This document shows, piece after piece, positions 13,028-55,859 of a stretch of DNA of 64,000 nucleotides. The stretch comes from an uncultured bacterium (GTDB lineage: Bacteria > Babelota > Babeliae > Babelales > Babelaceae). Each line of letters starts with the position of its first letter. Positions within the stretch are counted from its first letter, which is position 1. The notes beneath the pieces were generated by a model. It did no database searches, had not been told where the DNA came from, and saw only the letters and a list, made by a program, of their open reading frames with translations. A program made the position numbers and the translations under genes. Location: contig OY969428.1 of assembly GCA_963699275.1 (NCBI GenBank), forward strand, positions 629,110 through 693,109, in the 5' to 3' direction.

Positions 13028-13059
13028 CAAAAGCAAAAAAGGGTGCATTTGCACCCTTA
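13028..13059 (-). terminator. rho-independent terminator after csaA
   Basis: The minus strand reads aagggtgca-aa-tgcaccctt followed by ttttttgctttt. The stem overlaps the csaA stop codon. Confidence 0.6.
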
Positions 13060-13392
13060 AAAAAGCCGGGCTCCGTTAGCAACTTCCTTTTCAGGTCTTA
13101 CCAGCACTATATCACCTTTAGTATCAGCGACTCCCAATGTAAGCACTTCTGAGATAAAAGGGCCAATCTGCTTGGGAGCAAAATTAACCACCGCTAATAC
13201 CTGGCTGCCGATAAGGTGCTCTTTTGTGTAATGATGGGTAATTTGAGCCGATGACTTTTTGATTCCTATGTCCGGTCCAAAGTCTATCGTGAGCTTATAT
13301 GCAGGCTTTCTCGCCTCCGGAAAATCTTCAACGGCAGTGATAGTACCGACTTTGATAATAACTTTTTCAAAGTCTTGGTATGAGATATTCAT
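13057..13392 (-). CDS. csaA: tRNA-binding domain protein (CsaA/YgjH type)
   Basis: FEKVIIKVGTITAVEDFPEARKPAYKLTIDFG...SSAQIT...LIGSQVLAVVNFAPKQIGPFISEVL is the characteristic CsaA OB-fold pattern. Confidence 0.8.
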   Translation of the reverse strand: MNISYQDFEKVIIKVGTITAVEDFPEARKPAYKLTIDFGPDIGIKKSSAQITHHYTKEHLIGSQVLAVVNFAPKQIGPFISEVLTLGVADTKGDIVLVRPEKEVANGARLF

Positions 13393-14801
13393 GCTTTTAC
13401 CTTTCGTGTACAGCGAGAAACAGTCAGCAGCACAATCATCGAAAGTGCAAATCCTGGAAGAAGAGGCATAAAGCCAAATTTAAAATAAGGCCAGAGAAGG
13501 CCGAGTATCCCACCAAAGAACATGCTTGCTCTGATTCCATAGCGATTTGCCCACGGAATATAGAGTGCAGCAATGACGGATGGGGCGAATGAAAGGCCGA
13601 GCCCTGACCAGGCGTAACTTACTAAGCTATTAACGCTGCTCGTGTTATTGTAGCTAATTGCATACGCTAATAGAGGAAGGGCAATAATACAGCCTCGCAA
13701 GAGAGTAAGCGAATCTTTATCGCTCATTCCCTTTTTGTGAAGTCTTTTAATAAAATCTTCAGCAATGATGGAAGATGTAGCAAATATCTGTGCAGTCATA
13801 ACCGACATTGTTGCTGCAAGCACAGCACATAAAATAAAGCCTGCAAAGAGAGCAGGAAAGAGCTGTTTTACCATCTCGATAAAGACAAGCTCTCTATTTG
13901 CAAGAGGCGTTGCAAAAAAATAGCTCCCTACAAGGCCGACACAGGTAGCTGCGGCAAGGACTATTGTCTGCCATGATATACCGACCCATTTTGCTTTGTG
14001 CATTTGTTTGACATCTTTGATCGACATAAAGTTCATAAGAATATGTGGTGACCCAAAATAGCCTAAGCCCCAGCCTGTAGAAAGGAGGAGAATGCTGCTT
14101 ATTGTTGGCCACGAAAAATCAGGAAAGAGTCCCTTAGTTAAGCCTGAAAAACTCATCTGCGCAAGAAGGCCAGACGTATCTGTGATATGATTAAATGCTA
14201 CAATCGGTACCATAAGGATCATAGCAAGAAGAAAGATTCCTCTAAACATGTCACTCCATGCAAGTGCCACGAATCCTCCAATGAGAATATTAAGAACGAC
14301 CAGTAAAATGCTCAGAGCAATACCGAGATTATAATTGATGCCAAACGTTGTCTGGAATAATCTCCCTAATCCAATGAGTTCAGCTGCTATATAAAACACA
14401 ATGAAAAAGAACGTGAAAAAAACTGCCAGTAATCGAATCATACCTGAAGTATCATCAAATCTCTTTTCCAAGAAAGAGGCAAGCGTGAGACTTTGGTACT
14501 GCTCTGTACTTGTGCGTAAGCGTGGAGCAATGAACTGCCAGTTAAGGAACATGAAGATAATGAGGCCGAGAGCGACCCACACATTAAAAATTCCAAACCC
14601 GTAAATGAGGCCAGGATATCCCATAAATAGCCAGTCGCTCATATCGCTTGCTTGGGTAGAAAGGGCGGTTACCCAGTAATTCATTGAACGGTTACCAAGG
14701 ATAAATGAGCTTGTAGAGGTATTCTTTCGATAAAAGTAGAGACTGAGTCCCAGAAAAAATGCAAAGTAAGCGATAAACGCAATAAGATAGTACATGTTCA
14801 T
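13389..14801 (-). CDS. sodium:solute symporter family (SSF) transporter, PutP/PanF-like
   Basis: 470 aa with about 12-13 TM segments and typical SSF topology and composition. Its stop overlaps the csaA start (ATGA). The substrate cannot be assigned. Confidence 0.7.
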   Translation of the reverse strand: MNMYYLIAFIAYFAFFLGLSLYFYRKNTSTSSFILGNRSMNYWVTALSTQASDMSDWLFMGYPGLIYGFGIFNVWVALGLIIFMFLNWQFIAPRLRTSTEQYQSLTLASFLEKRFDDTSGMIRLLAVFFTFFFIVFYIAAELIGLGRLFQTTFGINYNLGIALSILLVVLNILIGGFVALAWSDMFRGIFLLAMILMVPIVAFNHITDTSGLLAQMSFSGLTKGLFPDFSWPTISSILLLSTGWGLGYFGSPHILMNFMSIKDVKQMHKAKWVGISWQTIVLAAATCVGLVGSYFFATPLANRELVFIEMVKQLFPALFAGFILCAVLAATMSVMTAQIFATSSIIAEDFIKRLHKKGMSDKDSLTLLRGCIIALPLLAYAISYNNTSSVNSLVSYAWSGLGLSFAPSVIAALYIPWANRYGIRASMFFGGILGLLWPYFKFGFMPLLPGFALSMIVLLTVSRCTRKVKA

Positions 14802-15216: not shown

Positions 15217-16923
15217 ATGCAACAAACTCATCGAAAGCATGCAATGAAAAAATTGGTTCCCATAGGCATTTCAGATTTTAAAGAGCTCAAAAGCGGTAAC
15301 TACTATTATGTAGACAAAACGATGCTTATTAAAGATATTTTTGAAAGCGGAAAAGCAGTTTTGGTTACTCGTCCTCGTCGCTTTGGTAAAACGTTAAACC
15401 TTTCTATGCTGCATTATTATTTTACATTAGAGAGTAATAATTCGGACCTTTTTGTTGATACTCAGATCTGGGCACATGAATCTTACAAAAATTTGCAGGG
15501 ACAATTTCCTGTAATTTTTATCACCTTTAGAGATATTACTCAGACAAATTACAATGACATGTTAAAAAAAATTGCATATACAGTTTCGATTGAATTTGAG
15601 AGATTTTTTTATATTCTTGAAGGTGAAACTCTTAAAACTCATGAAAAAGAAATGTTCAATCGCATAAATTCAAGGCATGCGGATTTAGTAGATTTGGCAA
15701 GCAGTCTAGAATTCTTAGTAAGAATGCTTCATAAGTTTCACAAAAAAAAGGTTATTGTGCTTTTGGATGAATATGATGTTCCTTTGCAGACCGCGTACCT
15801 CCATGGATTTTATGACGAACTTATTCCCGTGATGAGGGACCTTTTGACGGGTATTTTCAAAGATCAAGTAATGCTTGAAAAAGGCGTCATTACGGGGAAT
15901 TTGACACTCGCAAAAGCGGGGATTTTTTCGGGCCTTAATAATCTTGATGTGTATAATGTAACACATACTCGCATGGCAGATAAATTTGGTTTTACAACTG
16001 AGGAGGCATACGGCTTACTTGATTATTACGAGTGTAAAAATATCATTGAGGAAATCAAAAACTGGTATGATGGTTATACTTTTGGAGAAGTGAAAGGCAT
16101 ATTTAATCCGTGGTCAATGCTTAAATGCATATCAGAAAACGGTGTTCGTTACACCTATTGGGTAAATACGAGTCATAATTCTCTCCTTAAAAAACTTATT
16201 GGCTCAGCTGATGAAGGAACAAAAAGCGATCTTGTGAACCTTCTTAATGGTCAATCAGTGCAACATACTATTCGTGAATCAATTATCTTTAAAGATCTTG
16301 ATACTCAATTCGATCTTATTTGGAGCTTATTATTGTTTACTGGATACTTAACCTACACATCTTGTCACGTAAGGGACGGGAAAAAAGAATGCACACTCAT
16401 CATTCCTAATAATGAAATAAAATATTTATACGAAGAGCTCATAAGAGACATTTTTACACAGATTTTGCCAGGCAAAGGACAAGAACTCCTCTCTGCTATC
16501 ATTCGTGGCGACACAGCAACTTTTACGACACTTCTTCAAGATTTTGTTTTAAAAAGCATGAGTACTTTTGATGTGCCGAGTTCTGATCCTGAAAGAAGCT
16601 ATCATCTCTTTGTACTCGGTTTACTGGTTATGCTGAGCGAAGACTATGAAGTTTCATCAAATCGAGAAGGAGGATTAGGCAGGTATGATATTGCGCTCAT
16701 TCCGAAAGTTCCAGGGAAAGTGGGAATTGTTATCGAATTTAAAAAAGTGTGGGGTGAGAATGAAAGCTTGGAGGTATCTGCCCAAAAAGCGCTCGATCAA
16801 ATAGTTGAGAAGAAATACGCGATATCCTTATTTTCCAAAAATGTGTCTTCTGTCTTTGCTTACGGAATTGCCTTCAAGGGTAAGACACTCTTTGTGAAAT
16901 CTGCATCTCTTGCTAACAATTAA
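15217..16923 (+). CDS. predicted AAA-ATPase-like N-domain fused to a PD-(D/E)XK nuclease domain (PF09820 + PF08011 architecture)
   Basis: N-terminus IGISDFKELKSGNYYYVDKTMLIKDI...VLVTRPRRFGKTLNLSML. C-terminus SYHLFVLGLL...GRYDIALIPK...GIVIEFKK has the D..E.K nuclease core. An alternative start is at 15244. Confidence 0.75.
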   Translation: MQQTHRKHAMKKLVPIGISDFKELKSGNYYYVDKTMLIKDIFESGKAVLVTRPRRFGKTLNLSMLHYYFTLESNNSDLFVDTQIWAHESYKNLQGQFPVIFITFRDITQTNYNDMLKKIAYTVSIEFERFFYILEGETLKTHEKEMFNRINSRHADLVDLASSLEFLVRMLHKFHKKKVIVLLDEYDVPLQTAYLHGFYDELIPVMRDLLTGIFKDQVMLEKGVITGNLTLAKAGIFSGLNNLDVYNVTHTRMADKFGFTTEEAYGLLDYYECKNIIEEIKNWYDGYTFGEVKGIFNPWSMLKCISENGVRYTYWVNTSHNSLLKKLIGSADEGTKSDLVNLLNGQSVQHTIRESIIFKDLDTQFDLIWSLLLFTGYLTYTSCHVRDGKKECTLIIPNNEIKYLYEELIRDIFTQILPGKGQELLSAIIRGDTATFTTLLQDFVLKSMSTFDVPSSDPERSYHLFVLGLLVMLSEDYEVSSNREGGLGRYDIALIPKVPGKVGIVIEFKKVWGENESLEVSAQKALDQIVEKKYAISLFSKNVSSVFAYGIAFKGKTLFVKSASLANN

Positions 16924-17019: not shown

Positions 17020-17979
17020 CTATACCAGTGGCGTGATGACGAGCCAGAGGGCGATGATGAAAGCATACACGGCGCAAGTGTCTATAAGTCCCTGAGCTAA
17101 CATACTTGCTCGAGAGATAAAGTTATATGATTGCGGATTGTAGGCAATTTGAAGTGCACCGGCGGCAGCTGATCTGCCGGAGCTTATGCCAGCGCCAAAC
17201 GTGCCAAAGCCAATAGTTGCCCCAAAGGCCAGATAAGCTAATCCATACAGCCAGTGGTCAGGAACATATGTATATCGCGTGGTTAATAAAAATGAGATGA
17301 TCGATGCAAAAATGACCGGGGTTTCGATAATTGCCTGGCTAATGAATGTAAAAGTGAAGAGTCTGCTAAAGGCAAGACGGTTAAGTCCAATACTTTTGGT
17401 GGTTACCTTTGCTAAAAGGCCGCCTCCGAGCGCCGGCCCTACACAGCCAAAGCCGATGGCCACACCAGCGCCTACAAGGGCAAGTGCCTGGCTCACTGTT
17501 GTTACTGAGGAAAGCTTGTTACGTATGATAAGCGCAATAATAAATCCGAAAATGAGTGGGGTTTGACTGAGCGACTGAGCAAGCAACATAAAGTTACTTA
17601 TTTGTCGCGAAAGAAATGGTTGCCGAGCGATTGCAATAAAGGCCTCATATGGAGGTTGTGAGGCGGCCCAGCCGATGACCAGCCCAGGAATTCCGATCGC
17701 TATGGCCATCCCAATTTCCCCAACTGCTGCTGGCAATGTAGTTGGCTGCTTGAAAAAAAGCAGAAATGAGATGAGGAGGCCAAGGATAGCCGCAGTCTCG
17801 ATAAGAGCGAGCCCAAATATGACCGTACGTGTGATAGCTGGCTGCCCCGCAGGTTGACGATTTATTGCATCGAATGCCTGCTGCGTGGCAATTCCTTGCC
17901 CCAAACTGACACCAAATGCTGCACAGACAGTGCTAAACGCGATACTAATAAAGTGAATGAGCGCTATTGGCGATGTCAT
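17020..17979 (-). CDS. atpE: ATP synthase Fo c subunit, four c-type hairpins fused in one polypeptide (8 predicted TM helices)
   Basis: A continuous 319-aa ORF holds four units of about 80 aa, each Gly/Ala-rich helix, polar loop, second helix. Loops are RQPAGQ, RQPFLS, LNRLAF and YNPQSY. The ion-site position reads LIETAA (E), LSQTPL (Q), IIETPV (E) and LIDTCA (D). The start overlaps the atpB stop (ATGA). Confidence 0.8.
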   Translation of the reverse strand: MTSPIALIHFISIAFSTVCAAFGVSLGQGIATQQAFDAINRQPAGQPAITRTVIFGLALIETAAILGLLISFLLFFKQPTTLPAAVGEIGMAIAIGIPGLVIGWAASQPPYEAFIAIARQPFLSRQISNFMLLAQSLSQTPLIFGFIIALIIRNKLSSVTTVSQALALVGAGVAIGFGCVGPALGGGLLAKVTTKSIGLNRLAFSRLFTFTFISQAIIETPVIFASIISFLLTTRYTYVPDHWLYGLAYLAFGATIGFGTFGAGISSGRSAAAGALQIAYNPQSYNFISRASMLAQGLIDTCAVYAFIIALWLVITPLV

Positions 17980-18749
17980 AGATGCTGCTCCGATTGCTCA
18001 ATAGATGTAGCCATGCTGATATTGGTAAGCGTGAGGATCGAAAACACAAATGCCTGAAGGAAGCCCTCAAAAAGGATAAAGAACCCAGTAAGACCAAGAT
18101 TGATACCAAGCAGAATTCCTAGACTACTTTTCAGAATCGAGTTTGACATAAATGAATGCCAGATCTGGATGATAATTGCCCCTCCAAAAATGTTGCCAAA
18201 AAGACGGAAGGAAAGCGAGATGATGCCTGCGACTTCGCCCAAGACCTTGAGAGGAAGCATAATAATTCCCGCAATAAGGCTGAGTGGGAAGAAAATATTA
18301 AGCGGCATAAAGTAATCTTTTAAGTACGCTCCGAGTCCGTGCACATTAATCACCTCTTTTTGTATATAGAGGAATGCGATTATTCCTAAAGCCAAGGTCG
18401 TATTGAGATCCTTGGTTGGCTCTTCGACGTAAGGAAGGAGAGCAATCCAGTTACATGCAAGAATAAAAATAAAGAGAGGAGCGACAAAGGAATAGTAGCT
18501 ATATACAAAAGTACCTGCTGACTGCTCAACGAGTTGTATAAAGCTTTTGATAATCATTTTTACGATCCACGCTCCGGCAGAATCCTTTCTGCGTAAAAAG
18601 AAGCGGGCAATCACAATTAAGAAAATGAGAGCAGCGAGTGCTATCCAGGTATTTATGATGGTTGATGCAGTAAGTGCGGCGTAAGGACTTGTGATTCCCA
18701 AGGGAGCCAGGGGATACCACATTTGTTCATGTTCAAAGCCGCCTTCCAT
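17976..18749 (-). CDS. atpB: ATP synthase Fo a subunit
   Basis: PTKDLNTTLALGIIAF, ISLSFRLFGNIFGGAII (essential Arg) and FLQAFVFSILTLT. Confidence 0.88.
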   Translation of the reverse strand: MEGGFEHEQMWYPLAPLGITSPYAALTASTIINTWIALAALIFLIVIARFFLRRKDSAGAWIVKMIIKSFIQLVEQSAGTFVYSYYSFVAPLFIFILACNWIALLPYVEEPTKDLNTTLALGIIAFLYIQKEVINVHGLGAYLKDYFMPLNIFFPLSLIAGIIMLPLKVLGEVAGIISLSFRLFGNIFGGAIIIQIWHSFMSNSILKSSLGILLGINLGLTGFFILFEGFLQAFVFSILTLTNISMATSIEQSEQHL

Positions 18750-18765
18750 AGTCTTGCCTTGGTTT

Positions 18766-19017
18766 TTATCGTGTCTTTGTCAAAATAACAATCCACAGCG
18801 TTGTTATTAAGCTTCCTCCAAAGAGTATAAAAGGAATTATGCCCCATTGCAAGAAATAGAGCGCTGCTCCTGAAAAGGCAATGATTCGTAAAAGGGGAAT
18901 ATAGGGTTGAGAAAACGTCAGGGCTTTCCCTTGCTGAACAAGGGAAAGCCCATAGTAATAACCCGAAAGGAAACCTATGATGAGCGGGGGAACACCATGA
19001 ATAGTATGCTCAATCAT
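18766..19017 (-). CDS. small 2-3 TM membrane protein in the AtpI/AtpZ position (tentative)
   Basis: 83-aa hydrophobic ORF immediately upstream of atpB on the same strand. The call is positional only. Confidence 0.3.
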   Translation of the reverse strand: MIEHTIHGVPPLIIGFLSGYYYGLSLVQQGKALTFSQPYIPLLRIIAFSGAALYFLQWGIIPFILFGGSLITTLWIVILTKTR

Positions 19018-22765: not shown

Positions 22766-23767
22766 CTAAGAAGCTGTATTAAGAATATAGGCATCAAATG
22801 CAACAAGCCATTGAAGAATCTCGCTGTTCTCCGGCTTCTTGCAGGCAAGATCGAGAGCTCTTTCTCCGCGCATGTCTGTTATCATAACATTAATACCCTG
22901 TTTATTGAGAAGTAGTTTAACTATTTCAGTGTGACCGTAAGCAACCGCAAACATCAGAGCTGTTGTGCCAGAATGATCTTGGGAATTAACATCAACACCC
23001 TCTTTTTCAAGGAGCAACCTCACTGTTTCAGGGTGGTTTTCTATAACGGCAAGTGTGAGAGCGGTTGCGCCCGAAATTTCTTGCGCATTCAAACCTATAC
23101 GAGGGATATCAAGAAGTAACTTTGTAATTTTGGCATGACCATTGTAGGCAGCGAACATAAGAGCCGTCTCGCCACCGACATTTCCCGCATTGAAATCAAT
23201 TCCAGGTTGAGCGAGCAGTACTTCAACAACATCCGTATGTCCTTTTTCAGAGGCAATCATGAGAGGAGTGTCACCATCTAAATTTCGGGCGTTGATATCG
23301 GTAGCAGGTTGGGCGAGGAGAAATCGCACAAATTCCACCGGAGCGCCACGTGCTGCGAGCAAGAGAGGTGTTAATTTGTTTAGAATATTGCACTTGGATT
23401 GTAGTGCTTGGAGTATCGTTATATATTGCACTTCTATACTCTCAGGAGAGATAAATCCAGGAAGTGGCACAATGGGAGCTTGAGCATGTTCAGCGACTTG
23501 AGGTGAAAATTCTGAGGAGGCAACATGGACGCTTACCGTGCTTGACCCCGAGCTGCTTGCCTGTGCAGCAGGAATAAATTGTTGATTGTCTGTTGCCATG
23601 TTTTCAGGAATTAATTCTTGTTGATCAGTTTGGTAAAAGCGAGTTTTTTTAAACTCTTGTTCAGTCGGCTCATTGATGTCATCTATTAGATGTCTTTTTT
23701 TTTCCATGGTGAAGAGAGAATGAGTCGCGAGCAAACATGAGATAATGAGAAAAATGTTAAGTTTCAT
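22766..23767 (-). CDS. ankyrin-repeat protein with N-terminal secretion leader
   Basis: Leader MKLNIFLIISCLLATHSLFT then MEKK. There are at least 6 ANK units (G.TPLM.A...GH...V..LL..PGID.NA). Confidence 0.9.
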   Translation of the reverse strand: MKLNIFLIISCLLATHSLFTMEKKRHLIDDINEPTEQEFKKTRFYQTDQQELIPENMATDNQQFIPAAQASSSGSSTVSVHVASSEFSPQVAEHAQAPIVPLPGFISPESIEVQYITILQALQSKCNILNKLTPLLLAARGAPVEFVRFLLAQPATDINARNLDGDTPLMIASEKGHTDVVEVLLAQPGIDFNAGNVGGETALMFAAYNGHAKITKLLLDIPRIGLNAQEISGATALTLAVIENHPETVRLLLEKEGVDVNSQDHSGTTALMFAVAYGHTEIVKLLLNKQGINVMITDMRGERALDLACKKPENSEILQWLVAFDAYILNTAS

Positions 23768-24004: not shown

Positions 24005-25477
24005 TCAAGCATTAGATGCAAAGCCACTGATTAAAATGCCCGGTTTATTAAGAAGGAGTTCTATAATTTCCGTAAAGCCGCCCCATATTGCAAGCGTTAA
24101 CGCCGTCTCTCCAGATCTACTGCGAGCATTGACCTCGATTTCTTCTTTTTCAAGGAGTAGCTCAACGACTTTTTTATGTCCACAATTGGCGGCTAGCATG
24201 AGTGCGGTCCAACCATCTTCTTCGCGTGCATTTACGGTAACTTCGGGTCTGTCGAGAAGCATCTGTATTGTTTCTGAATCGCCCTTTTCAGCAGCAACCA
24301 TGAGAGGCGTACACCCATCGAGAGACTGAGCATTTACATCAATATGAGGATCTCTAAGAAGTATTCGAACGATCTCTTTGTGTTTTTTGCTAGCGGCAAT
24401 CAAGAGGGCCGTCTCTCCTCGACTATTTTGCGCATTGATGGCGATGCTTGGATGGTTGATGAGGAGTTTAGTAATACCTTTATAACCTTTCTCCGCGGCA
24501 AGTCTCAAAGGAGTAGTTCTCAAGAAGTTTTGAGCATTGACAATAATATCAGGATGAGTAAGCAAAAGTTTAACGAGGTCTGTACGTCCCTTGAGGACAG
24601 CGATTAAGAGAGCATTCCATCCTTTGCTATCTTGAATATTAACATCAATGGTAGTTTGATTAAGGAGTATGCGGGCGCTTTCTATTTGCTCAATGTTTGC
24701 AGCGATCATGAGAGCGGTCCAGCCCTCGTAATTTTGGTCATTAATGTCGATGCGAGGTTTACTCAGAAGTATTTTCATGATTGCGCTATTGCCATATTCG
24801 GCAGCTAGCATAAGAGCACTTCTGCCTCCGGGGCCTTTAGCATTGATATCTGGCATAGATAATTTATCAAGCAATTTAACAATTGCTGCTTGCCCGGTTT
24901 TTGTAGCAATCATGAGAGCGGTATTGCCAATGATATCCCTCATGTAGGGTTTAATACCAGGATCGGTGAGCAGTAACTGCACGATTTCTTCGTGACCACT
25001 GTCCGCAGCCAACATGAGAGGAGTCCAGCCATGTTCATTCTGGACATTGACATTCACGTGTTGAGAAAGAAGCGACCGAACGATCGGTGTATGTCCCTTG
25101 TGCGCAGCAATCATGAGTTGCAGTGTTCCTCCCTTTTTTTCGTGAGCGTGAGTGAACTGTTGCAATTGTAATGGCTTCATTGCGCTTTCTGGCGCATTTC
25201 CAATTAAGAACTGTTCATTACTTGGTTGCTCGATAGTGGGATGAACGCGGCTAGCACGTAAGGATGTCGTAGCTGGCATAGTATTGTGTGGAACTATATT
25301 TTTATCTGTCATTTTCGGAGTCGTAGCATTTTCTGTGCGAGCTTTTTTACACTCAATCTTTTCTTTTGTTTTACTGTCAACGTGCTGCCTTTTTTCCATG
25401 GTAAAGACACTTTGATTTGTCAATAAGAACGAAGTAAGAAGAAAAATTTTGACTTTCATGGACATTCCGAATTTCAT
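24005..25477 (-). CDS. ankyrin-repeat protein with N-terminal secretion leader
   Basis: Probable start is MKVKIFLLTSFLLTNQSVFT-MEKR (25459). About 11 ANK units follow. Confidence 0.9.
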   Translation of the reverse strand: MKFGMSMKVKIFLLTSFLLTNQSVFTMEKRQHVDSKTKEKIECKKARTENATTPKMTDKNIVPHNTMPATTSLRASRVHPTIEQPSNEQFLIGNAPESAMKPLQLQQFTHAHEKKGGTLQLMIAAHKGHTPIVRSLLSQHVNVNVQNEHGWTPLMLAADSGHEEIVQLLLTDPGIKPYMRDIIGNTALMIATKTGQAAIVKLLDKLSMPDINAKGPGGRSALMLAAEYGNSAIMKILLSKPRIDINDQNYEGWTALMIAANIEQIESARILLNQTTIDVNIQDSKGWNALLIAVLKGRTDLVKLLLTHPDIIVNAQNFLRTTPLRLAAEKGYKGITKLLINHPSIAINAQNSRGETALLIAASKKHKEIVRILLRDPHIDVNAQSLDGCTPLMVAAEKGDSETIQMLLDRPEVTVNAREEDGWTALMLAANCGHKKVVELLLEKEEIEVNARSRSGETALTLAIWGGFTEIIELLLNKPGILISGFASNA

Positions 25478-25800: not shown

Positions 25801-27446
25801 CTAATTTAAAACTTTGCGGTGAGAACGAATCAATTCAGCAGTTTCGGTTTCATCCTCTTCGATAGCTATTTCTAAGGCAGTATTTCCTTCATCATTTTTA
25901 TCATCGAGATTAATACCAGGCTTGGCAAGCAACATTTGCACAACATTCTTATGGCCATAGAAAGCAGCAAGCATAAGCGCGGTCCAACCCGAATGATCTC
26001 TTGTATTGATATTTACTTGAAATTTGTCGATTAATAGCTGAACGACTTGCTTTTTCTCAGTAATGCTTCCTGCTGCGCACATGAGAGCATTCCAACCGTC
26101 AGAATTTTGAGCATTGATATTTATGCCAGGCATCTCAAGTAACAAGAGTGCTATATTTTCGAGATCCTGGATTTTGTCAACTTCGCGATCGTTGTTAAGT
26201 GAAATTGTGAGGGCTGTATCAAGACTTTCGTCTTGCATATTAACATCTATCTGTGGTTGAGCAAGCAACATTTGCACAACATTCTTATGGCCATAGAAAG
26301 CAGCAAGCATAAGCGCGGTCCAACCCGAATGATCTCTTGTATTGATATTTACTTGAAATTTGTCGATTAATAGCTGAACGACTTGCTTTTTCTCAGTAAT
26401 GCTTCCTGCTGCGCACATGAGAGCATTCCAACCGTCAGAATTTTGAGCATTGACATTTATGCCAGGCATCTCAAGTAACAAGAGTGCTATATTTTCGAGA
26501 TCCTGGATTTTGTCAACTTCGCGATCGTTGTTAAGTGAAATTGTGAGGGCTGTATCAAGACTTTCTTCTTGCCTATTAACATCTATCTGTGGTTGAGCAA
26601 GCAACATTTGCACAACATTCTTATGGCCATAGAAAGCAGCAAGCATAAGCGCGGTCCAACCCGAATGATCTCTTGTATTGATATTTACTTGAAATTTGTC
26701 GATTAATAGCTGAACGACTTGCTTTTTCTCAGTAATGCTACCCGCTGCGCACATGAGAGCATCCCAACAGTCAGCATTTCTGGCCTTGACATTTATGCCG
26801 GGCATCTCAAGTAACAAGAGTGCTATATCTTCACGATCATTGCTAAGTGAAATTGTGAGGGCTGTATCAAGATCTTCGTCTTGTATTTTAACATCTATCT
26901 GTGGTTGAGCAAGCAACAATTTTACAATTTCTATGTATCCTTGTTCAGTGGCAGCAATAAGCGCAGTCCAAACGGGATCATGTTCACCATGCGTGTTGTT
27001 GATATCAATGCCAGGCTGTGTAAGTAATAGTTGCACGATGTCTTTGTGGCCGTTCATAGCGGCCAGTATGAGAGCAGTCATGCAGCAATTACGAGCATTG
27101 ATATCGATGCCAGGTTGTTTCAGGAGGACGCGAACGATTTCCACATGACCATTGTTAGCTGCGCACATGAGAGGAGAGTTTCCTTCTTCGTTTTGTGCAT
27201 TGATGGCAATATATGGTTTGCCAAGGAGTGCATTGACGATTTCTAATTGACCACTTTCAGCGGCAAGTATGAGGGCTTTTGCATAGTCGTGGGCTTCAAC
27301 AACGTCTGATCTTGATCCCGAGTTACGCGAGTTTTCTTGGAACCTTGCTCAGTTACAACATCATTGAGAATTCTCCTTTTTTCCATCGTAAAAAGAGAAT
27401 GATATGTTGTGAAACATGAAATAATGATAAATACTTTAATGCGCAT
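25801..27446 (-). pseudogene. ankyrin-repeat gene with a frame break between the leader and the repeat region
   Basis: The leader ORF 27243..27446 (MRIKVFIIISCFTTYHSLFT-MEKR...) and the ANK ORF are in different frames. The ANK ORF is open upstream of the M at 27168, to about 27350, and the two overlap at about 27245-27350. One indel would fuse them. Confidence 0.7.
25925..26915 (-). repeat. three tandem 336-bp (112-aa) near-identical intragenic repeats
   Basis: The unit beginning gcaagcaacatttgcacaacattcttatgg recurs at 25925, 26261 and 26597. Copies 1 and 2 are almost identical. Copy 3 is more diverged and has a short deletion. Confidence 0.9.
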
Positions 27447-27642: not shown

Positions 27643-28995
27643 TTAACGCGTGATCTTTCCAAAACTCTTAATCAAATTAACGATAGCGGCATGTCCACGT
27701 TGCCTCGCTATTTCAAGAGCAGTTTCTTTATCCGTATTTTGAGCATTCAGATCAATTGCAGGTACTTTAAGCAGGAGTTGAACAATTTCTGTATGTCCCA
27801 TATCAGCAGCACACATGAGAGGAGTCCATCGATCATTGTCCTGCTGATTAACGTCAATGCTCACTTTTTTAAGTAGGAGTCGAACCATTTCAGTGTGACC
27901 ATGTTTACACGCTATCATAAGAGCAGTAGCACCATCTTCATTTTGTGCATTAATATGGATATGAGCCTTACTAAGAAGGCATTCGGCACTGGCTGTATTT
28001 CCATACTCAGCAGCAATCATTAAAGCACTGATGTCTTGTTCTTCATGAGCATTAATATCGACATCAGGATGATCTATGAGTAATTGTACTATCTCTGAGA
28101 AATCATTTTCGCATGCGAGCATGAGTGCTGTTTGGCCGACATCTTGTTGAACGTTGACATCAATGTCCGGTTCATCAAGAAGCAATTTCACAATTTCTAT
28201 GTGACCTTTTTCGGCAGCGAGCATAAGAGCGGTGTAACCATAGGACTCAACCGCATTAATCTCGATGTCATCCCTGTCAAGAAGTAACTGTACAATTTCT
28301 TGATTGCCCTTTTCAACAGCAACTATGAGTGGCGGTTCTGAGCCTATATTTACATCAATACTGGGCATTGCAAGGAGCAATCGAACGATGTTTATATGTC
28401 CGCCATACAAAGCACAGCTCAGTGCAGATACGCCGGCTCTTTCATCATTGATGTTGATTTTTGGTTGCTTAAGCAGTATTTGAACGATTTCGTAATGACC
28501 ATTCTTGGCAGCTGATATAAGAGCAGTTGTAGTGTCGGGTAGATGGGGAGCATTAACATCAATATCTGGAATGCCAAAAAGCGAATTTACCATTTCTGTA
28601 CGTCCACATTCAGCAGCTATTAAAAGGGCCCTGCAGCAGAGTTGTTGTATGGTTGTATTACCCGATTGTTGCTCAAGTAATTTTTTGATGTCTTGCGCGA
28701 TAGAAATAAAAAATGGTCTCCAATCGGAACTATGACTTGTCTTTTCAAATATAATAGCTTCAAGTATTCGTAACATATACAAGCAAAGTTGCTGATCTTC
28801 CGCCGAAAGTGAGATGAGCTGTTGCGTGAGTGATGATTGACACCTATCGATTTCGGTACTTACCGGTGAAGAATTAACGGTACTTCCAGACTCATTGTGG
28901 TTAGTGTTGCCGAGGGCCTTACGTGTTTGCTCCATGGTTAAAAGGGATGTACTTGCAAACAAACTAGATGTAATAAAAAAAATTTTGAGTTTCAT
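27643..28995 (-). CDS. ankyrin-repeat protein with N-terminal secretion leader
   Basis: Leader MKLKIFFITSSLFASTSLLT then MEQT. About 9 ANK units. Confidence 0.9.
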   Translation of the reverse strand: MKLKIFFITSSLFASTSLLTMEQTRKALGNTNHNESGSTVNSSPVSTEIDRCQSSLTQQLISLSAEDQQLCLYMLRILEAIIFEKTSHSSDWRPFFISIAQDIKKLLEQQSGNTTIQQLCCRALLIAAECGRTEMVNSLFGIPDIDVNAPHLPDTTTALISAAKNGHYEIVQILLKQPKININDERAGVSALSCALYGGHINIVRLLLAMPSIDVNIGSEPPLIVAVEKGNQEIVQLLLDRDDIEINAVESYGYTALMLAAEKGHIEIVKLLLDEPDIDVNVQQDVGQTALMLACENDFSEIVQLLIDHPDVDINAHEEQDISALMIAAEYGNTASAECLLSKAHIHINAQNEDGATALMIACKHGHTEMVRLLLKKVSIDVNQQDNDRWTPLMCAADMGHTEIVQLLLKVPAIDLNAQNTDKETALEIARQRGHAAIVNLIKSFGKITR

Positions 28996-53627: not shown

Positions 53628-55859
53628 ATGAACATTAAAAATTTCTTAATTTCTTTACTCTTTATTTCTTATCCTCTGTGTGCGATGTCCTCAAAACAAT
53701 TAGCCAAACAAAGGAATAAAATTACCAGACAGCATCTTGAAAATCTAAACGAAGAATTAAAAGAGTTCTTGCTGCTTTTGAAGAAGCCGGGAAATATTAA
53801 CGCTCGTGATGCGCATGGAAATACTCCACTTATAAGGGCTATCGAGCAAAGCAACAGTAAAATGACTCAACTGATCCTTAAACTACCAGCCACAGATATC
53901 AATGCCAAAAATCAAGAAGGCGTAACCGCTCTTATGTGCGCTGCCAAAATATCTCGATTCAAAGAAATTGTTCAGTTATTGCTCGCTAAAAAAGCTATTG
54001 ATGTTAATGCCCAAGATGTAAGAGGAGAAACAGCTCTGATGATCGCCACAAAATTTGGTAACAAAGAAGTTGTTGAGTTGCTCTTTAAAGCACCCAATAT
54101 AAATGTAAATGCTCAAGATAAAGATGGCAAAACAGCTCTTATGTTTGCTGCGCAATTTGATCAAAAAGAAATCGCTCAACTGCTTATTGCACAACCTGGA
54201 ATTGCTATCAATGCCCAAACGAAATCCGGTTGGACGGCTTTAACGTATGCTATTCGATCTGAGGGCGCTGAAATAACAGCACTCCTTCTAAATCAACCTT
54301 GCATCGATGTTTCGAAAGTGCTTTTTGATGCGGTCACGTTTGGTAGAAAAGAAGTTGTCGAACAGCTTCTTGCCAGACCTGATGTCGATGTCAATGCTGT
54401 CACAGAAGCGGGATTGAGTGCTTTGAGATTAGCATTTGATTATCAACAGAAAGATATAATTATCTTACTGCTTAATAAAAAAGGAATAGATATCAAACAA
54501 GCGCTTTTTCATGCCGTTCGTAAAAATAATAAAGAAGCGGTCCAACTGTTTCTTGCTCAATCTTGTATTGACATAAATATCGTGTATCAAAAACACACGG
54601 TTCTCGGTATTGCTGCCGAAAATGGTCACAAGGAGATAGTGGAGCTTCTCCTTCAACAACGTGGTGTCGATGTTAATCGAAAAGACGAATTTGGTCATAC
54701 CGCTCTCATATGCGCTTGCAAAGAAAATTTTACGGAAATTGTTGAACTGCTTCTTAAGCATCCAGGTATCGATATTTGTGCGCGCGATCAAGCGAGGTGG
54801 TCTGCTATGACATTCGCTATCCGCTGTGGTCACAAAAAAATAGTAGCCTTACTACTTGATAATCCTCACATTGATCTTACAGCAGCTCTTATGGAAATAA
54901 TTTCAGCGGGCAATGTAGAGATGATGCGATTGCTTCTTGCCCGAACAAATATCAGTATTAATCTTGCAGATGAATCTGGCGATACACCACTTGTGAAAGC
55001 TATCATTTGTGGGCGAAAAGAAATGGTTCAGTTCCTTCTCCAACAACCTGGCGGTAATATAAATGGCGAAAACAAGTACGGGTGGTCACTTCTTAGGTGT
55101 GCGCTCAAATTTGGTCACCCGGAAATAGCGCTACTTTTGGCTAATGACCCTAACATAGATAGAAATAAAGCTCTTCTAGACGCTGTTCGCGAAGGAAACA
55201 AAGAAATCTTTCAAGTGCTTTTGACTAAACCTGGCGTAGATATAAATGCACACAATGAACATGGTGAGACAGCCCTTATTGTTGCTGCTCAAAAAGGTCA
55301 AACAGAACTGGCAGGGCTACTTCTTGCAATGCCTCATGTCGCTCTTAATGCTGGTGACGATGATGGCCAAACGGCTCTCATGATTGCTGCTTATAATGGT
55401 CACGAGGAAATTGTTGGGCTGCTTCTTGCTCAACTTACTATAGCTGTTAATGTTCAAGACGAGACAGGCAGGACAGCTCTGATGGCTGCTGCTCATGAGG
55501 GTCACAGAGAAATTGTTCAATTACTTCTTGCTCACCCTGATATAGCCATTAATGTTCAAGATAATGAACAGGTAACGGCTCTCATGTACGCTACGGAAAA
55601 CGGTCATACTGAAGCAGCTCAGTGCTTTCTCAGTGCTCCTGACATAGCGGTCAATGTTCAAGATAGTGATGGTCGGACTGCTCTTATGCTTGCTGTTGAA
55701 AACGGTCATCTTGAAACTGTTCAATTGCTACTTCATCAATATGATTTAGAGATGAATATCAAGGATCACGAAGATTTGACAGCTGAGCAGATAGCTGAAC
55801 AAAGCGGGTATGCCACTATTGCACAGTTAATTCGAAGTGCTTATAGAGTCACTCGCTAA
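53628..55859 (+). CDS. large ankyrin-repeat protein (about 20 units) with N-terminal secretion leader
   Basis: Leader MNIKNFLISLLFISYPLCA then MSSK, followed by continuous ANK units. Confidence 0.9.
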   Translation: MNIKNFLISLLFISYPLCAMSSKQLAKQRNKITRQHLENLNEELKEFLLLLKKPGNINARDAHGNTPLIRAIEQSNSKMTQLILKLPATDINAKNQEGVTALMCAAKISRFKEIVQLLLAKKAIDVNAQDVRGETALMIATKFGNKEVVELLFKAPNINVNAQDKDGKTALMFAAQFDQKEIAQLLIAQPGIAINAQTKSGWTALTYAIRSEGAEITALLLNQPCIDVSKVLFDAVTFGRKEVVEQLLARPDVDVNAVTEAGLSALRLAFDYQQKDIIILLLNKKGIDIKQALFHAVRKNNKEAVQLFLAQSCIDINIVYQKHTVLGIAAENGHKEIVELLLQQRGVDVNRKDEFGHTALICACKENFTEIVELLLKHPGIDICARDQARWSAMTFAIRCGHKKIVALLLDNPHIDLTAALMEIISAGNVEMMRLLLARTNISINLADESGDTPLVKAIICGRKEMVQFLLQQPGGNINGENKYGWSLLRCALKFGHPEIALLLANDPNIDRNKALLDAVREGNKEIFQVLLTKPGVDINAHNEHGETALIVAAQKGQTELAGLLLAMPHVALNAGDDDGQTALMIAAYNGHEEIVGLLLAQLTIAVNVQDETGRTALMAAAHEGHREIVQLLLAHPDIAINVQDNEQVTALMYATENGHTEAAQCFLSAPDIAVNVQDSDGRTALMLAVENGHLETVQLLLHQYDLEMNIKDHEDLTAEQIAEQSGYATIAQLIRSAYRVTR

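Follow-up and report, generated by a model that had tools for sequence, protein, structure and literature searches.

A four-hairpin F-type c subunit encoded beside atpB in the Dependentiae

The rotor subunit encoded by atpE4, a gene in a 64,000-nucleotide stretch of contig OY969428.1 (assembly GCA_963699275.1, from an uncultured member of the Babelaceae; hereafter the window), consists of four ordinary c-subunit hairpins fused in one chain. The gene lies directly after atpB, which encodes an F-type a subunit. Alignment of its orthologues shows that a predicted pattern of active, dead, active and active ion-binding sites is conserved across the phylum Dependentiae, together with the essential Arg of the a subunit. 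We think it probable that an atpI-like gene, atpB and atpE4 encode the Fo, or ion-translocating, part of a complete F1Fo ATPase whose remaining genes are scattered, and that this enzyme is run mainly as an ATP-driven pump. The genes concerned, with the evidence used to assign them, are as follows.

17020..17979, minus strand: atpE4, F-type c subunit of 319 amino acids with four hairpins and eight transmembrane helices (PF00137 four times, AlphaFold2 model, orthologues)
17740..17979, minus strand: hairpin 1 (residues 1-80), with E61 (codon 17799..17797), T62, Q28 in helix 1 and the cytoplasmic loop N-R-Q-P
17500..17739, minus strand: hairpin 2 (residues 81-160), carboxylate replaced by Gln (Q139, codon 17565..17563), loop A-R-Q-P-F (R119-F122)
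17260..17499, minus strand: hairpin 3 (residues 161-240), with E219 (codon 17325..17323) in the motif I-I-E-T-P
17020..17259, minus strand: hairpin 4 (residues 241-319 and the stop codon), with D300 (codon 17082..17080), T301, Y305, S267 and Q296
17976..18749, minus strand: atpB, F-type a subunit of 257 amino acids, stator and ion channel, R182 codon 18206..18204 (PF00119)
18766..19017, minus strand: small hydrophobic open reading frame (ORF) of 83 amino acids with about three transmembrane helices, probably an AtpI-like assembly factor (conserved position)

Four c-subunit hairpins in one chain

The reading frame of atpE4 is unbroken over its 319 amino acids. PF00137 (ATP-synt_C) matches the product in four stretches with E=2.3e-30 and 105 bits, the cut-off being 24, and the top NCBIfam matches are models of F-type c subunits, also in four stretches. 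An AlphaFold2 model built from a 48-sequence alignment has eight long helices arranged as four hairpins, with a mean predicted local distance difference test score (pLDDT) of 95.3 and a predicted TM-score (pTM) of 0.90. Every hairpin is laid out like a c subunit: helix 1 is rich in Gly, the loop is polar (RQP in the first two units), and helix 2 has a carboxylate or Gln at its middle. A first-pass annotation of the window, made from the nucleotide sequence without database searches, had divided this continuous ORF by eye into four c-like units of about 80 amino acids and had predicted four PF00137 matches and eight helices; the domain search and the model bear it out on each point.

The hairpins are mutually homologous (hhalign probability 96.6-99.2%, E-values from 5e-10 to 1.4e-19), and their consensus sequences are 25-40% identical to one another. 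We found no tandem repeat in atpE4 at the level of the DNA; taken with the low identity between the hairpins, this indicates that the duplications are ancient. The closest pairs are hairpins 3 and 4, 1 and 4, and 2 and 3, so that a history of two successive duplications, which would pair hairpin 1 with 3 and hairpin 2 with 4, is unsupported.

The stop codon of atpB overlaps the start codon of atpE4 in the sequence ATGA, a translational coupling that the first-pass annotation had noted and that can be read directly. It had also described the a subunit as normal and in possession of its essential Arg, and this proved correct: the protein matches PF00119 (E=1.7e-34), its closest matches in the Protein Data Bank (PDB) are bacterial F-type a subunits, and the Arg in question is R182, within LSFRLFGNIFGG, which is invariant in 77/77 a subunits from the Dependentiae.

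When GTDB species were scanned, each through a single genome, 86 loci of this type came up and 80 of them were fetched. Our comparison set amounts to 87 loci; residue counts given below refer to 81 distinct c sequences, and those for the a subunit to 77 sequences. The scanned loci all come from metagenome-assembled genomes (MAGs) or isolates of Dependentiae, including Vermiphilus pyriformis (CP074345) and strain Noda2021 (AP025250). A single c gene of 315-351 amino acids stands directly 3' of atpB at 87/87 loci, overlapping it by 4 nt at 33 of them and by 1 nt at 14, and the gene order folC-like, small hydrophobic ORF, atpB, atpE4 is conserved. This is the outcome of the comparison with related genomes that the first-pass annotation had called for. 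Babela massiliensis has the same arrangement: in the supplementary annotation of that species its AtpE (BAB00271.1) is listed, with no comment there, as a protein of 320 amino acids with eight predicted transmembrane helices. Approximately 330 relatives of atpE4 are present in a collection of 5.8 billion proteins. Among the best 120 of these nearly all are 309-325 amino acids long, identity extends down to 44%, and those with a name are Candidatus Dependentiae or Babeliales.

The possibility that the four units arose by mis-assembly of a single c gene present in tandem copies, or that the gene is a pseudogene, has a negligible claim on these data, and nothing was found in its favour. There is no repeat in the DNA, hairpins that are merely 25-40% identical are not what misjoined copies would give, the residues are strongly conserved by position, and the same ORF appears in 87 independent assemblies, closed isolate genomes and long-read chromosomes among them. 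Because the same gene is conserved across the 87 loci, the comparison excludes assembly error and pseudogenisation.

Thirteen records with the Dependentiae type of atpB-atpE4 locus carry Pseudomonadota titles (L020, L033, L035, L037, L038, L043, L053, L063, L065, L066, L072, L074 and L085 of our locus set); the title 'uncultured Pseudomonadota bacterium' on these GTDB representative MAGs is probably a mislabelled taxonomy. A scan of IMG/VR for mis-binned Dependentiae contigs found none, and the plasmid collection that was searched gave no match.

Ion-binding sites and relatives among known rotors

The window protein has E61 (in LIETAA), Q139, E219 (in IIETPV) and D300 at the key positions of its four hairpins. 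Across the 81 c sequences these positions and their neighbours are occupied as follows.

Hairpin 1, position 61: Glu in 77, Asp in 4; Thr62 in 76/81
Hairpin 2, position 139: Gln in 79, Glu in 1, Val in 1; Thr140 in 73 (and Ser in 6), Pro141 in 75
Hairpin 3, position 219: Glu in 81/81; Thr220 in 76 (and Ser in 4), Pro221 in 80
Hairpin 4, position 300: Asp in 59, Glu in 22; Tyr305, Ser267 and Gln296 each in 81/81, Thr301 in 73

The residues Glu, Gln, Glu and Asp are those reported by the first-pass annotation, which had allowed the canonical Glu to units 1 and 3 only and had spoken of lost carboxylates. Loss holds for unit 2 but not for unit 4, where position 300 holds a carboxylate in 81/81 sequences with an invariant Tyr five residues further on. 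Three of the four sites therefore survive and not two: judging from the alignment, three are kept under strict selection and exactly one, that of hairpin 2, is dead.

The loops are conserved in a manner that distinguishes the first two hairpins from the others. In hairpin 1 Q42 and P43 are nearly invariant, and the A-R-Q-P-F loop of hairpin 2 is the most conserved of all (R119 in 80, Q120 in 79, P121 in 81 and F122 in 76 of 81), while the conserved loops of hairpins 3 and 4 are of another kind (N200 and P282, respectively). In E. coli the RQP loop is the point at which the c ring is coupled to gamma and epsilon; the near-invariance of this motif in hairpins 1 and 2 argues for the existence of an F1 partner.

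The identity of the coupling ion can be considered in the light of the residues around each site. In each of the four hairpins the residue next after the key position is Thr, or rarely Ser. At position 28 of hairpin 1, the equivalent of Gln32 of Ilyobacter tartaricus, there is Gln in 42 and Glu in 28 of the 81 sequences, as in Na+-type c subunits and the two-carboxylate variant. The sites read Q/E+E+T in hairpin 1, S+Q+T+P in hairpin 2, L+E+T+P in hairpin 3 and S+D/E+T+Y in hairpin 4, and the full set of Na+ ligands (the equivalents of Gln/Glu32, Glu65, Ser/Thr66, Thr67 and Tyr70) is complete in no single hairpin. The Thr after each key residue and the Gln or Glu in helix 1 of hairpin 1 resemble Na+-binding c subunits and make Na+ a plausible coupling ion.

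The first-pass annotation had drawn an analogy with the c1 subunit of Acetobacterium woodii, and this subunit, from the 'F/V-hybrid' rotor of that species, is indeed the best match of atpE4 in the PDB both by sequence (4BEM chain J, E=1.4e-9) and by fold (TM-score 0.78, root-mean-square deviation 2.0 A over 161 columns). The best matches by sequence and fold include the A. woodii c1 and c2/3 subunits, which are F-type; after c1 come NtpK of Enterococcus hirae and eukaryotic V-type c subunits, and none of the solved structures covers more than half of the atpE4 model. In A. woodii, as in the window, an F-type enzyme has a c subunit of more than one hairpin, one hairpin of which has lost its carboxylate through replacement of Glu by Gln in an '(E/Q)T' motif (Q139 in atpE4), and upstream lies an AtpI-type gene, in the window a probable one. 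The two differ in that c1 has two hairpins and one site and is present as a single copy beside nine c2/c3 subunits, according to the review by Litty and Muller 2022 (PMC9171764), whereas atpE4 has four hairpins and three sites, no adjacent gene for a single-hairpin partner, and atp genes that are not gathered in one operon.

In the case of the single-hairpin F-type c subunits of I. tartaricus, spinach and E. coli, each unit of atpE4 has the same layout, but atpE4 has four non-identical units in one chain. It passes the PF00137 threshold, has the carboxylate in helix 2 and has an a-subunit partner with the Arg, an interaction read from gene context. The V- and A-type proteolipids (NtpK of E. 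hirae, eukaryotic c, c' and c'', archaeal K) share with it the fusion of hairpins and a number of carboxylates lower than the number of hairpins, and NtpK (2BL2) and yeast c superpose on half of the atpE4 model; they differ in that their partner is a V-type a/I subunit and not a PF00119 protein. Such proteolipids with reduced sites are classically tied to ATP-driven pumping (PMC9171764). Two other assignments were considered and rejected. As a V-type proteolipid atpE4 falls short, with 57.9 bits where 188 are required (NF011483) and 41 where 127 are (NF005124), and its neighbour encodes an F-type a subunit. As parts of an N-ATPase (gene order atpDCQRBEFAG) the c subunit scores 89.4 against 130.85 (TIGR03322) and the a subunit 75.7 against 302.1 (TIGR03306), and there are no adjacent F1 genes, atpQ or atpR.

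An exhaustive HMMER search revealed further multi-hairpin c proteins beyond the Dependentiae. A follow-up search yielded at least 2,410 relatives whose names place them in Deltaproteobacteria, Desulfobacterales or Thermodesulfobacteriota; they are about 324, 404 or 485 amino acids long, which corresponds to 4, 5 or 6 hairpins. Like atpE4 they are F-type and are encoded directly after atpB; a Desulfobacterota protein is collinear with atpE4 (29% identity over 291 amino acids, E=4e-31), and the 'QTP.IF' motif of their site-less hairpins is also that of the dead hairpin in atpE4. The Desulfobacterota proteins have Glu in hairpin 1 only and Gln in the others, whereas atpE4 keeps three sites of four; and their genes form a complete operon (AtpZ-AtpI-a-c-c-b'-b-delta-alpha-gamma-beta-epsilon, one c being a protein of 82-83 amino acids), whereas those of the Dependentiae are scattered. 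Examples from Desulfobacterota/Thermodesulfobacteriota MAGs are L091:8001-9497 and L173:7001-8249. Judging by these predicted proteins, F-type c subunits with several hairpins are a wider phenomenon, one that seems to have gone unremarked, and the fusion itself is not unique to the Dependentiae; by the same comparison, the Dependentiae version is distinct in its three retained sites, the lack of an adjacent single-hairpin c gene and its dispersed atp genes.

We found no paper on a four-hairpin F-type c subunit or on fused c subunits in Dependentiae, in full-text searches that left subscription journals largely uncovered, and none on the multi-hairpin proteins of Desulfobacterota. The genome papers on TM6/Dependentiae deal with 'ATP synthase' in general statements only (PMC4776705, PMC6561590). 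Litty and Muller 2022 (PMC9171764) list archaeal c subunits of 1, 2, 3 or 13 hairpins, not 4, and name the A. woodii hybrid alone as a bacterial F-type case with several hairpins. The statement of the first-pass annotation that a four-fold fusion would be unusual in an F-type context thus holds for the literature searched but fails in sequence space, given the Desulfobacterota relatives. What we describe is apparently an undescribed, conserved variant of a known principle and not a new kind of system.

Its significance lies in the number of sites. The carboxylate count of the c ring sets the ion-to-ATP ratio of rotary ATPases and is central to bioenergetics; the fusion of hairpins with deletion of sites is the textbook account of how V-ATPases became pumps. 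Here an entire phylum of energy parasites that are obligately intracellular has, as its apparently sole c gene, a four-hairpin fusion. With three sites of four in Dependentiae and one of four, five or six in Desulfobacterota, nature offers a series of F-type rotors that bears on the coupling ratio, on step size at the a/c interface and on the need for a symmetry mismatch between rotor and stator.

Three very long single-chain c proteins also came to light: P0260 (1139 amino acids, 15 hairpins), P0263 (524 amino acids, 7 hairpins) and P0265 (968 amino acids, about 13 hairpins by an estimate from length, 9 being matched by the motif expression). They have Glu in every matched hairpin, and each may make up an entire rotor ring by itself. 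A single-chain c protein that forms the whole ring is known in Methanopyrus kandleri.

Scattered F1 genes and the probable working of the enzyme

The first-pass annotation had pointed out that no b or F1 genes are near atpB and atpE4. This is true of the window and its relatives: a search with the P-loop motif and with phmmer, using E. coli AtpD, gave no alpha/beta homologue or F1-type P-loop in the 64 kb, a corresponding search of 1.6 Mb of flanks gave no F1 or V1 gene within 10 kb on either side of the c gene at the 87 loci, and neither in the window nor at those loci does atpB-atpE4 have a neighbouring gene for any of b, delta, alpha, gamma, beta and epsilon. It is not true as a statement about the genome. 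A search for atp genes elsewhere, which the same annotation had proposed, used the gamma subunit of Babela as query and yielded a gamma subunit, P0310 (271 amino acids, PF00231). P0310 and P0001, a protein identical to the window c subunit, both have a 1,733,188-bp contig as the longest on which they occur, and both occur in Logan sample ERR11596056; the shared contig size and sample indicate that this predicted gamma subunit is encoded in the window's own genome. Gamma subunits are likewise found on contigs of 1,496,855, 1,758,355, 1,417,897, 1,746,605 and 1,194,016 bp that bear other four-hairpin c genes.

The gene for gamma stands by itself. In Babela atpG is solitary and approximately 190 kb from atpB-atpE; on ENA contig_12845 some 73 kb separate it from atpB-atpE4, its neighbours are yacP/tsaE and ankyrin genes, and it is solitary there and on a short contig of the window genome as well. 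No alpha or beta gene was found beside gamma within the fetched flanks of 80 metagenome gamma loci, and the sole alpha/beta matches in that scan came from L091, an operon that is not from Dependentiae. In the dependentian loci (L088:278-1093; L089:10001-10843; L093-L172) atpG has yacP/tsaE on one side and ankyrin or F-box genes on the other. Additional file 11 of Pagnier et al. 2015 (PMC4378268) lists AtpA, AtpD, AtpG, AtpC, AtpH and AtpB for both Babela and TM6SC1, and AtpF for Babela; in that supplementary material B. massiliensis has alpha, beta, gamma, delta, epsilon and b at loci away from atpB-atpE. All TM6 genomes are said to 'encode an ATP synthase' (PMC4776705). On the evidence of these gene positions, the atp operon is dispersed around the chromosome in Dependentiae, so that the absence of F1 genes from the neighbourhood is no sign of an orphan Fo.

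An orphan Fo would be an a subunit and a four-hairpin c without F1, working as a passive channel for ions or within some other machine. The empty neighbourhood of atpB-atpE4 in the window and at the 87 loci is what such an assembly would predict, but we regard it as highly improbable. Gamma is encoded in the same genomes, and we know of no role for gamma outside F1. All eight types of subunit occur in Babela, the loops that couple to F1 are nearly invariant, and an uncoupled Fo would be a harmful leak, as the expression of Fo in E. coli has made clear.

The reading that we favour, a complete and dispersed F1Fo ATPase run mainly as a pump, suggests the following mode of operation. A few copies of the four-hairpin protein would build the ring, which would have 8 hairpins with two copies, 12 with three and 16 with four; all these numbers are within the range of 8-17 cited for F-type c rings in PMC9171764. 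Carboxylates would be loaded and unloaded at the interface with Arg182 of the a subunit, and every fourth hairpin, the one with Gln, would pass Arg182 without an ion, as does c1 in A. woodii. One turn, at a cost of 3 ATP, would then carry 6, 9 or 12 ions rather than 8, 12 or 16, which makes 2, 3 or 4 ions per ATP; one dead site in four means 25% fewer ions per turn than a single-hairpin ring of equal size. By an equation quoted in PMC9171764, a lower ion-to-ATP ratio results in a larger achievable ion-motive force per ATP. Hydrolysis of ATP would drive ion export and energise the membrane for Na+- or H+-coupled secondary transporters such as the sodium:solute symporter (SSF) encoded at 13389..14801 of the window. 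Na+ symporters are found across the phylum, examples being this SSF protein and COG0591 and COG1115 in Babela.

Dependentiae have ATP/ADP translocases and no respiratory chain, and their ATP synthase is described as reversed (PMC4776705, PMC6561590); in Chromulinavorax the enzyme appears to run in reverse (PMC6561590). With no respiratory chain and with ATP imported from the host, ATP-driven pumping is the direction to be expected, and the energy-parasitic lifestyle invoked in the first-pass annotation agrees with it to that extent. The further step, from multiplied c subunits to a pump, is less secure, as such subunits do not preclude ATP synthesis (PMC9171764). If our reading is right, metabolic models of Dependentiae may be refined, for their 'ATP synthase' seems to be built as a pump.

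Several considerations weigh against this reading. We infer the direction of operation, the coupling ion and the copy number of the ring. The Na+ ligands are partial: in hairpin 1 the equivalents of Thr67 and Tyr70 are Ala and Leu, and in hairpin 3 the equivalent of Gln32 is Leu. Gamma alone has been tied to this genome, the alpha, beta, delta, epsilon and b subunits being known from Babela. An A1AO enzyme with a V-type c subunit still makes ATP, at 90-150 mV, as reported in PMC9171764, and a lower ratio is by itself no proof of a function in pumping only.

This last observation also speaks for the view that the enzyme is mainly an ATP synthase, driven by the membrane pyrophosphatase or by gradients derived from the host, with the smaller number of sites being an adaptation unrelated to pumping. 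Rotary enzymes are reversible, and a membrane pyrophosphatase is present in all TM6 genomes (PMC4776705). We nevertheless consider this very unlikely: there is no respiratory chain or other major generator of a gradient, host ATP is brought in by translocases, and fewer ions per ATP raise the ion-motive force that synthesis needs (by the equation quoted in PMC9171764), which is the wrong direction for a weak source of gradient.

The remaining difficulties concern the composition of the ring. In a hybrid rotor the four-hairpin protein would contribute one copy or a few, as a minor part, to a ring consisting mostly of a single-hairpin c subunit encoded elsewhere. The nearest solved structure, that of A. 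woodii c1, is from a hybrid ring, and in Desulfobacterota, where the closest relatives outside the Dependentiae are found, the gene for 4-6 hairpins is always followed by one for a c subunit of 82-83 amino acids. The COG0636 count given for Babela in the supplement of PMC4378268 is 2 (0 for TM6SC1), an ambiguous figure that could stand for two domain footprints of the 320-amino-acid protein or for a second c gene, and the scattering of atp genes leaves room for a small c gene elsewhere in the genome. On the other side, no second PF00137-like ORF, and hence no co-encoded single-hairpin c as in A. woodii, was found within 10 kb on either side of atpB at the 87 loci, and there was no protein of about 80 amino acids among the 150 best matches of the exhaustive HMMER search. 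Three of the four carboxylates are strictly selected, against one in known or presumed minor components of hybrid rings, and atpE4 is translationally coupled to atpB, as is expected of a main c gene. On balance a hybrid rotor seems unlikely to us.

The dispersed, pump-like F1Fo ATPase that we prefer can be put in a bolder form, which is possible but doubtful. The four-hairpin protein would be the only c subunit, and three copies would form a ring of 12 hairpins and nine carboxylates with exact three-fold symmetry. The enzyme would be a dedicated pump moving an integer 3 ions, probably Na+, per ATP, and the nearly invariant RQPF loop of the site-less hairpin, one in each protomer, would be the dedicated docking point for gamma and epsilon. 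If this were true the symmetry of the three-copy rotor would match the three catalytic sites of F1, providing a natural test of whether rotary coupling needs a symmetry mismatch.

Neighbouring genes

Two further genes of the window, both assigned by domain search, lie on the far side of atpE4.

15217..16923, plus strand: convergent gene with AAA-ATPase_like and PDDEXK_9 domains, unrelated
13389..14801, minus strand: sodium:solute symporter SSF of 470 amino acids

A folC-like gene lies upstream of the 83-amino-acid hydrophobic ORF, which is itself upstream of atpB. A hydrophobic ORF of 80-110 amino acids is found directly upstream of atpB at most of the 87 loci. PF03899 (ATP-synt_I) gives weak matches in 6/30 of its orthologues (best E=0.0013), and Pfam and NCBIfam are blank for the window copy; the equivalent in Babela is listed with 84 amino acids and three transmembrane helices. 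The ORF is weakly AtpI-like and probably encodes an assembly factor of that kind. A scan of the locus for promoters and terminators gave no signal beyond shuffled expectation.

On the other side of atpE4, most Dependentiae loci have an ORF of about 380 amino acids on the same strand, 20-40 bp after the c gene (for example L004:10976-12124), which is a GT4 glycosyltransferase where gene calls exist. The window differs, its place being taken by the convergent plus-strand gene at 15217-16923, which is the unrelated neighbour described in the first-pass annotation. The AAA-ATPase_like and PD-(D/E)XK (PDDEXK_9) family to which it belongs is said to be expanded in Babela. Two genes downstream of atpE4, at 13057-14801 on the minus strand, the SSF symporter is followed by an ORF of 111 amino acids; the pair is syntenic in a relative (L002), where the counterpart of the smaller gene encodes a protein with a tRNA-binding domain (PF01588). 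The symporter is a possible consumer of a Na+ gradient. The window also encodes at least five large ankyrin-repeat proteins (22766-23767, 24005-25477, 25801-27168, 27643-28995 and 53628-55859), an abundance typical of the effectors of amoeba-associated Dependentiae.

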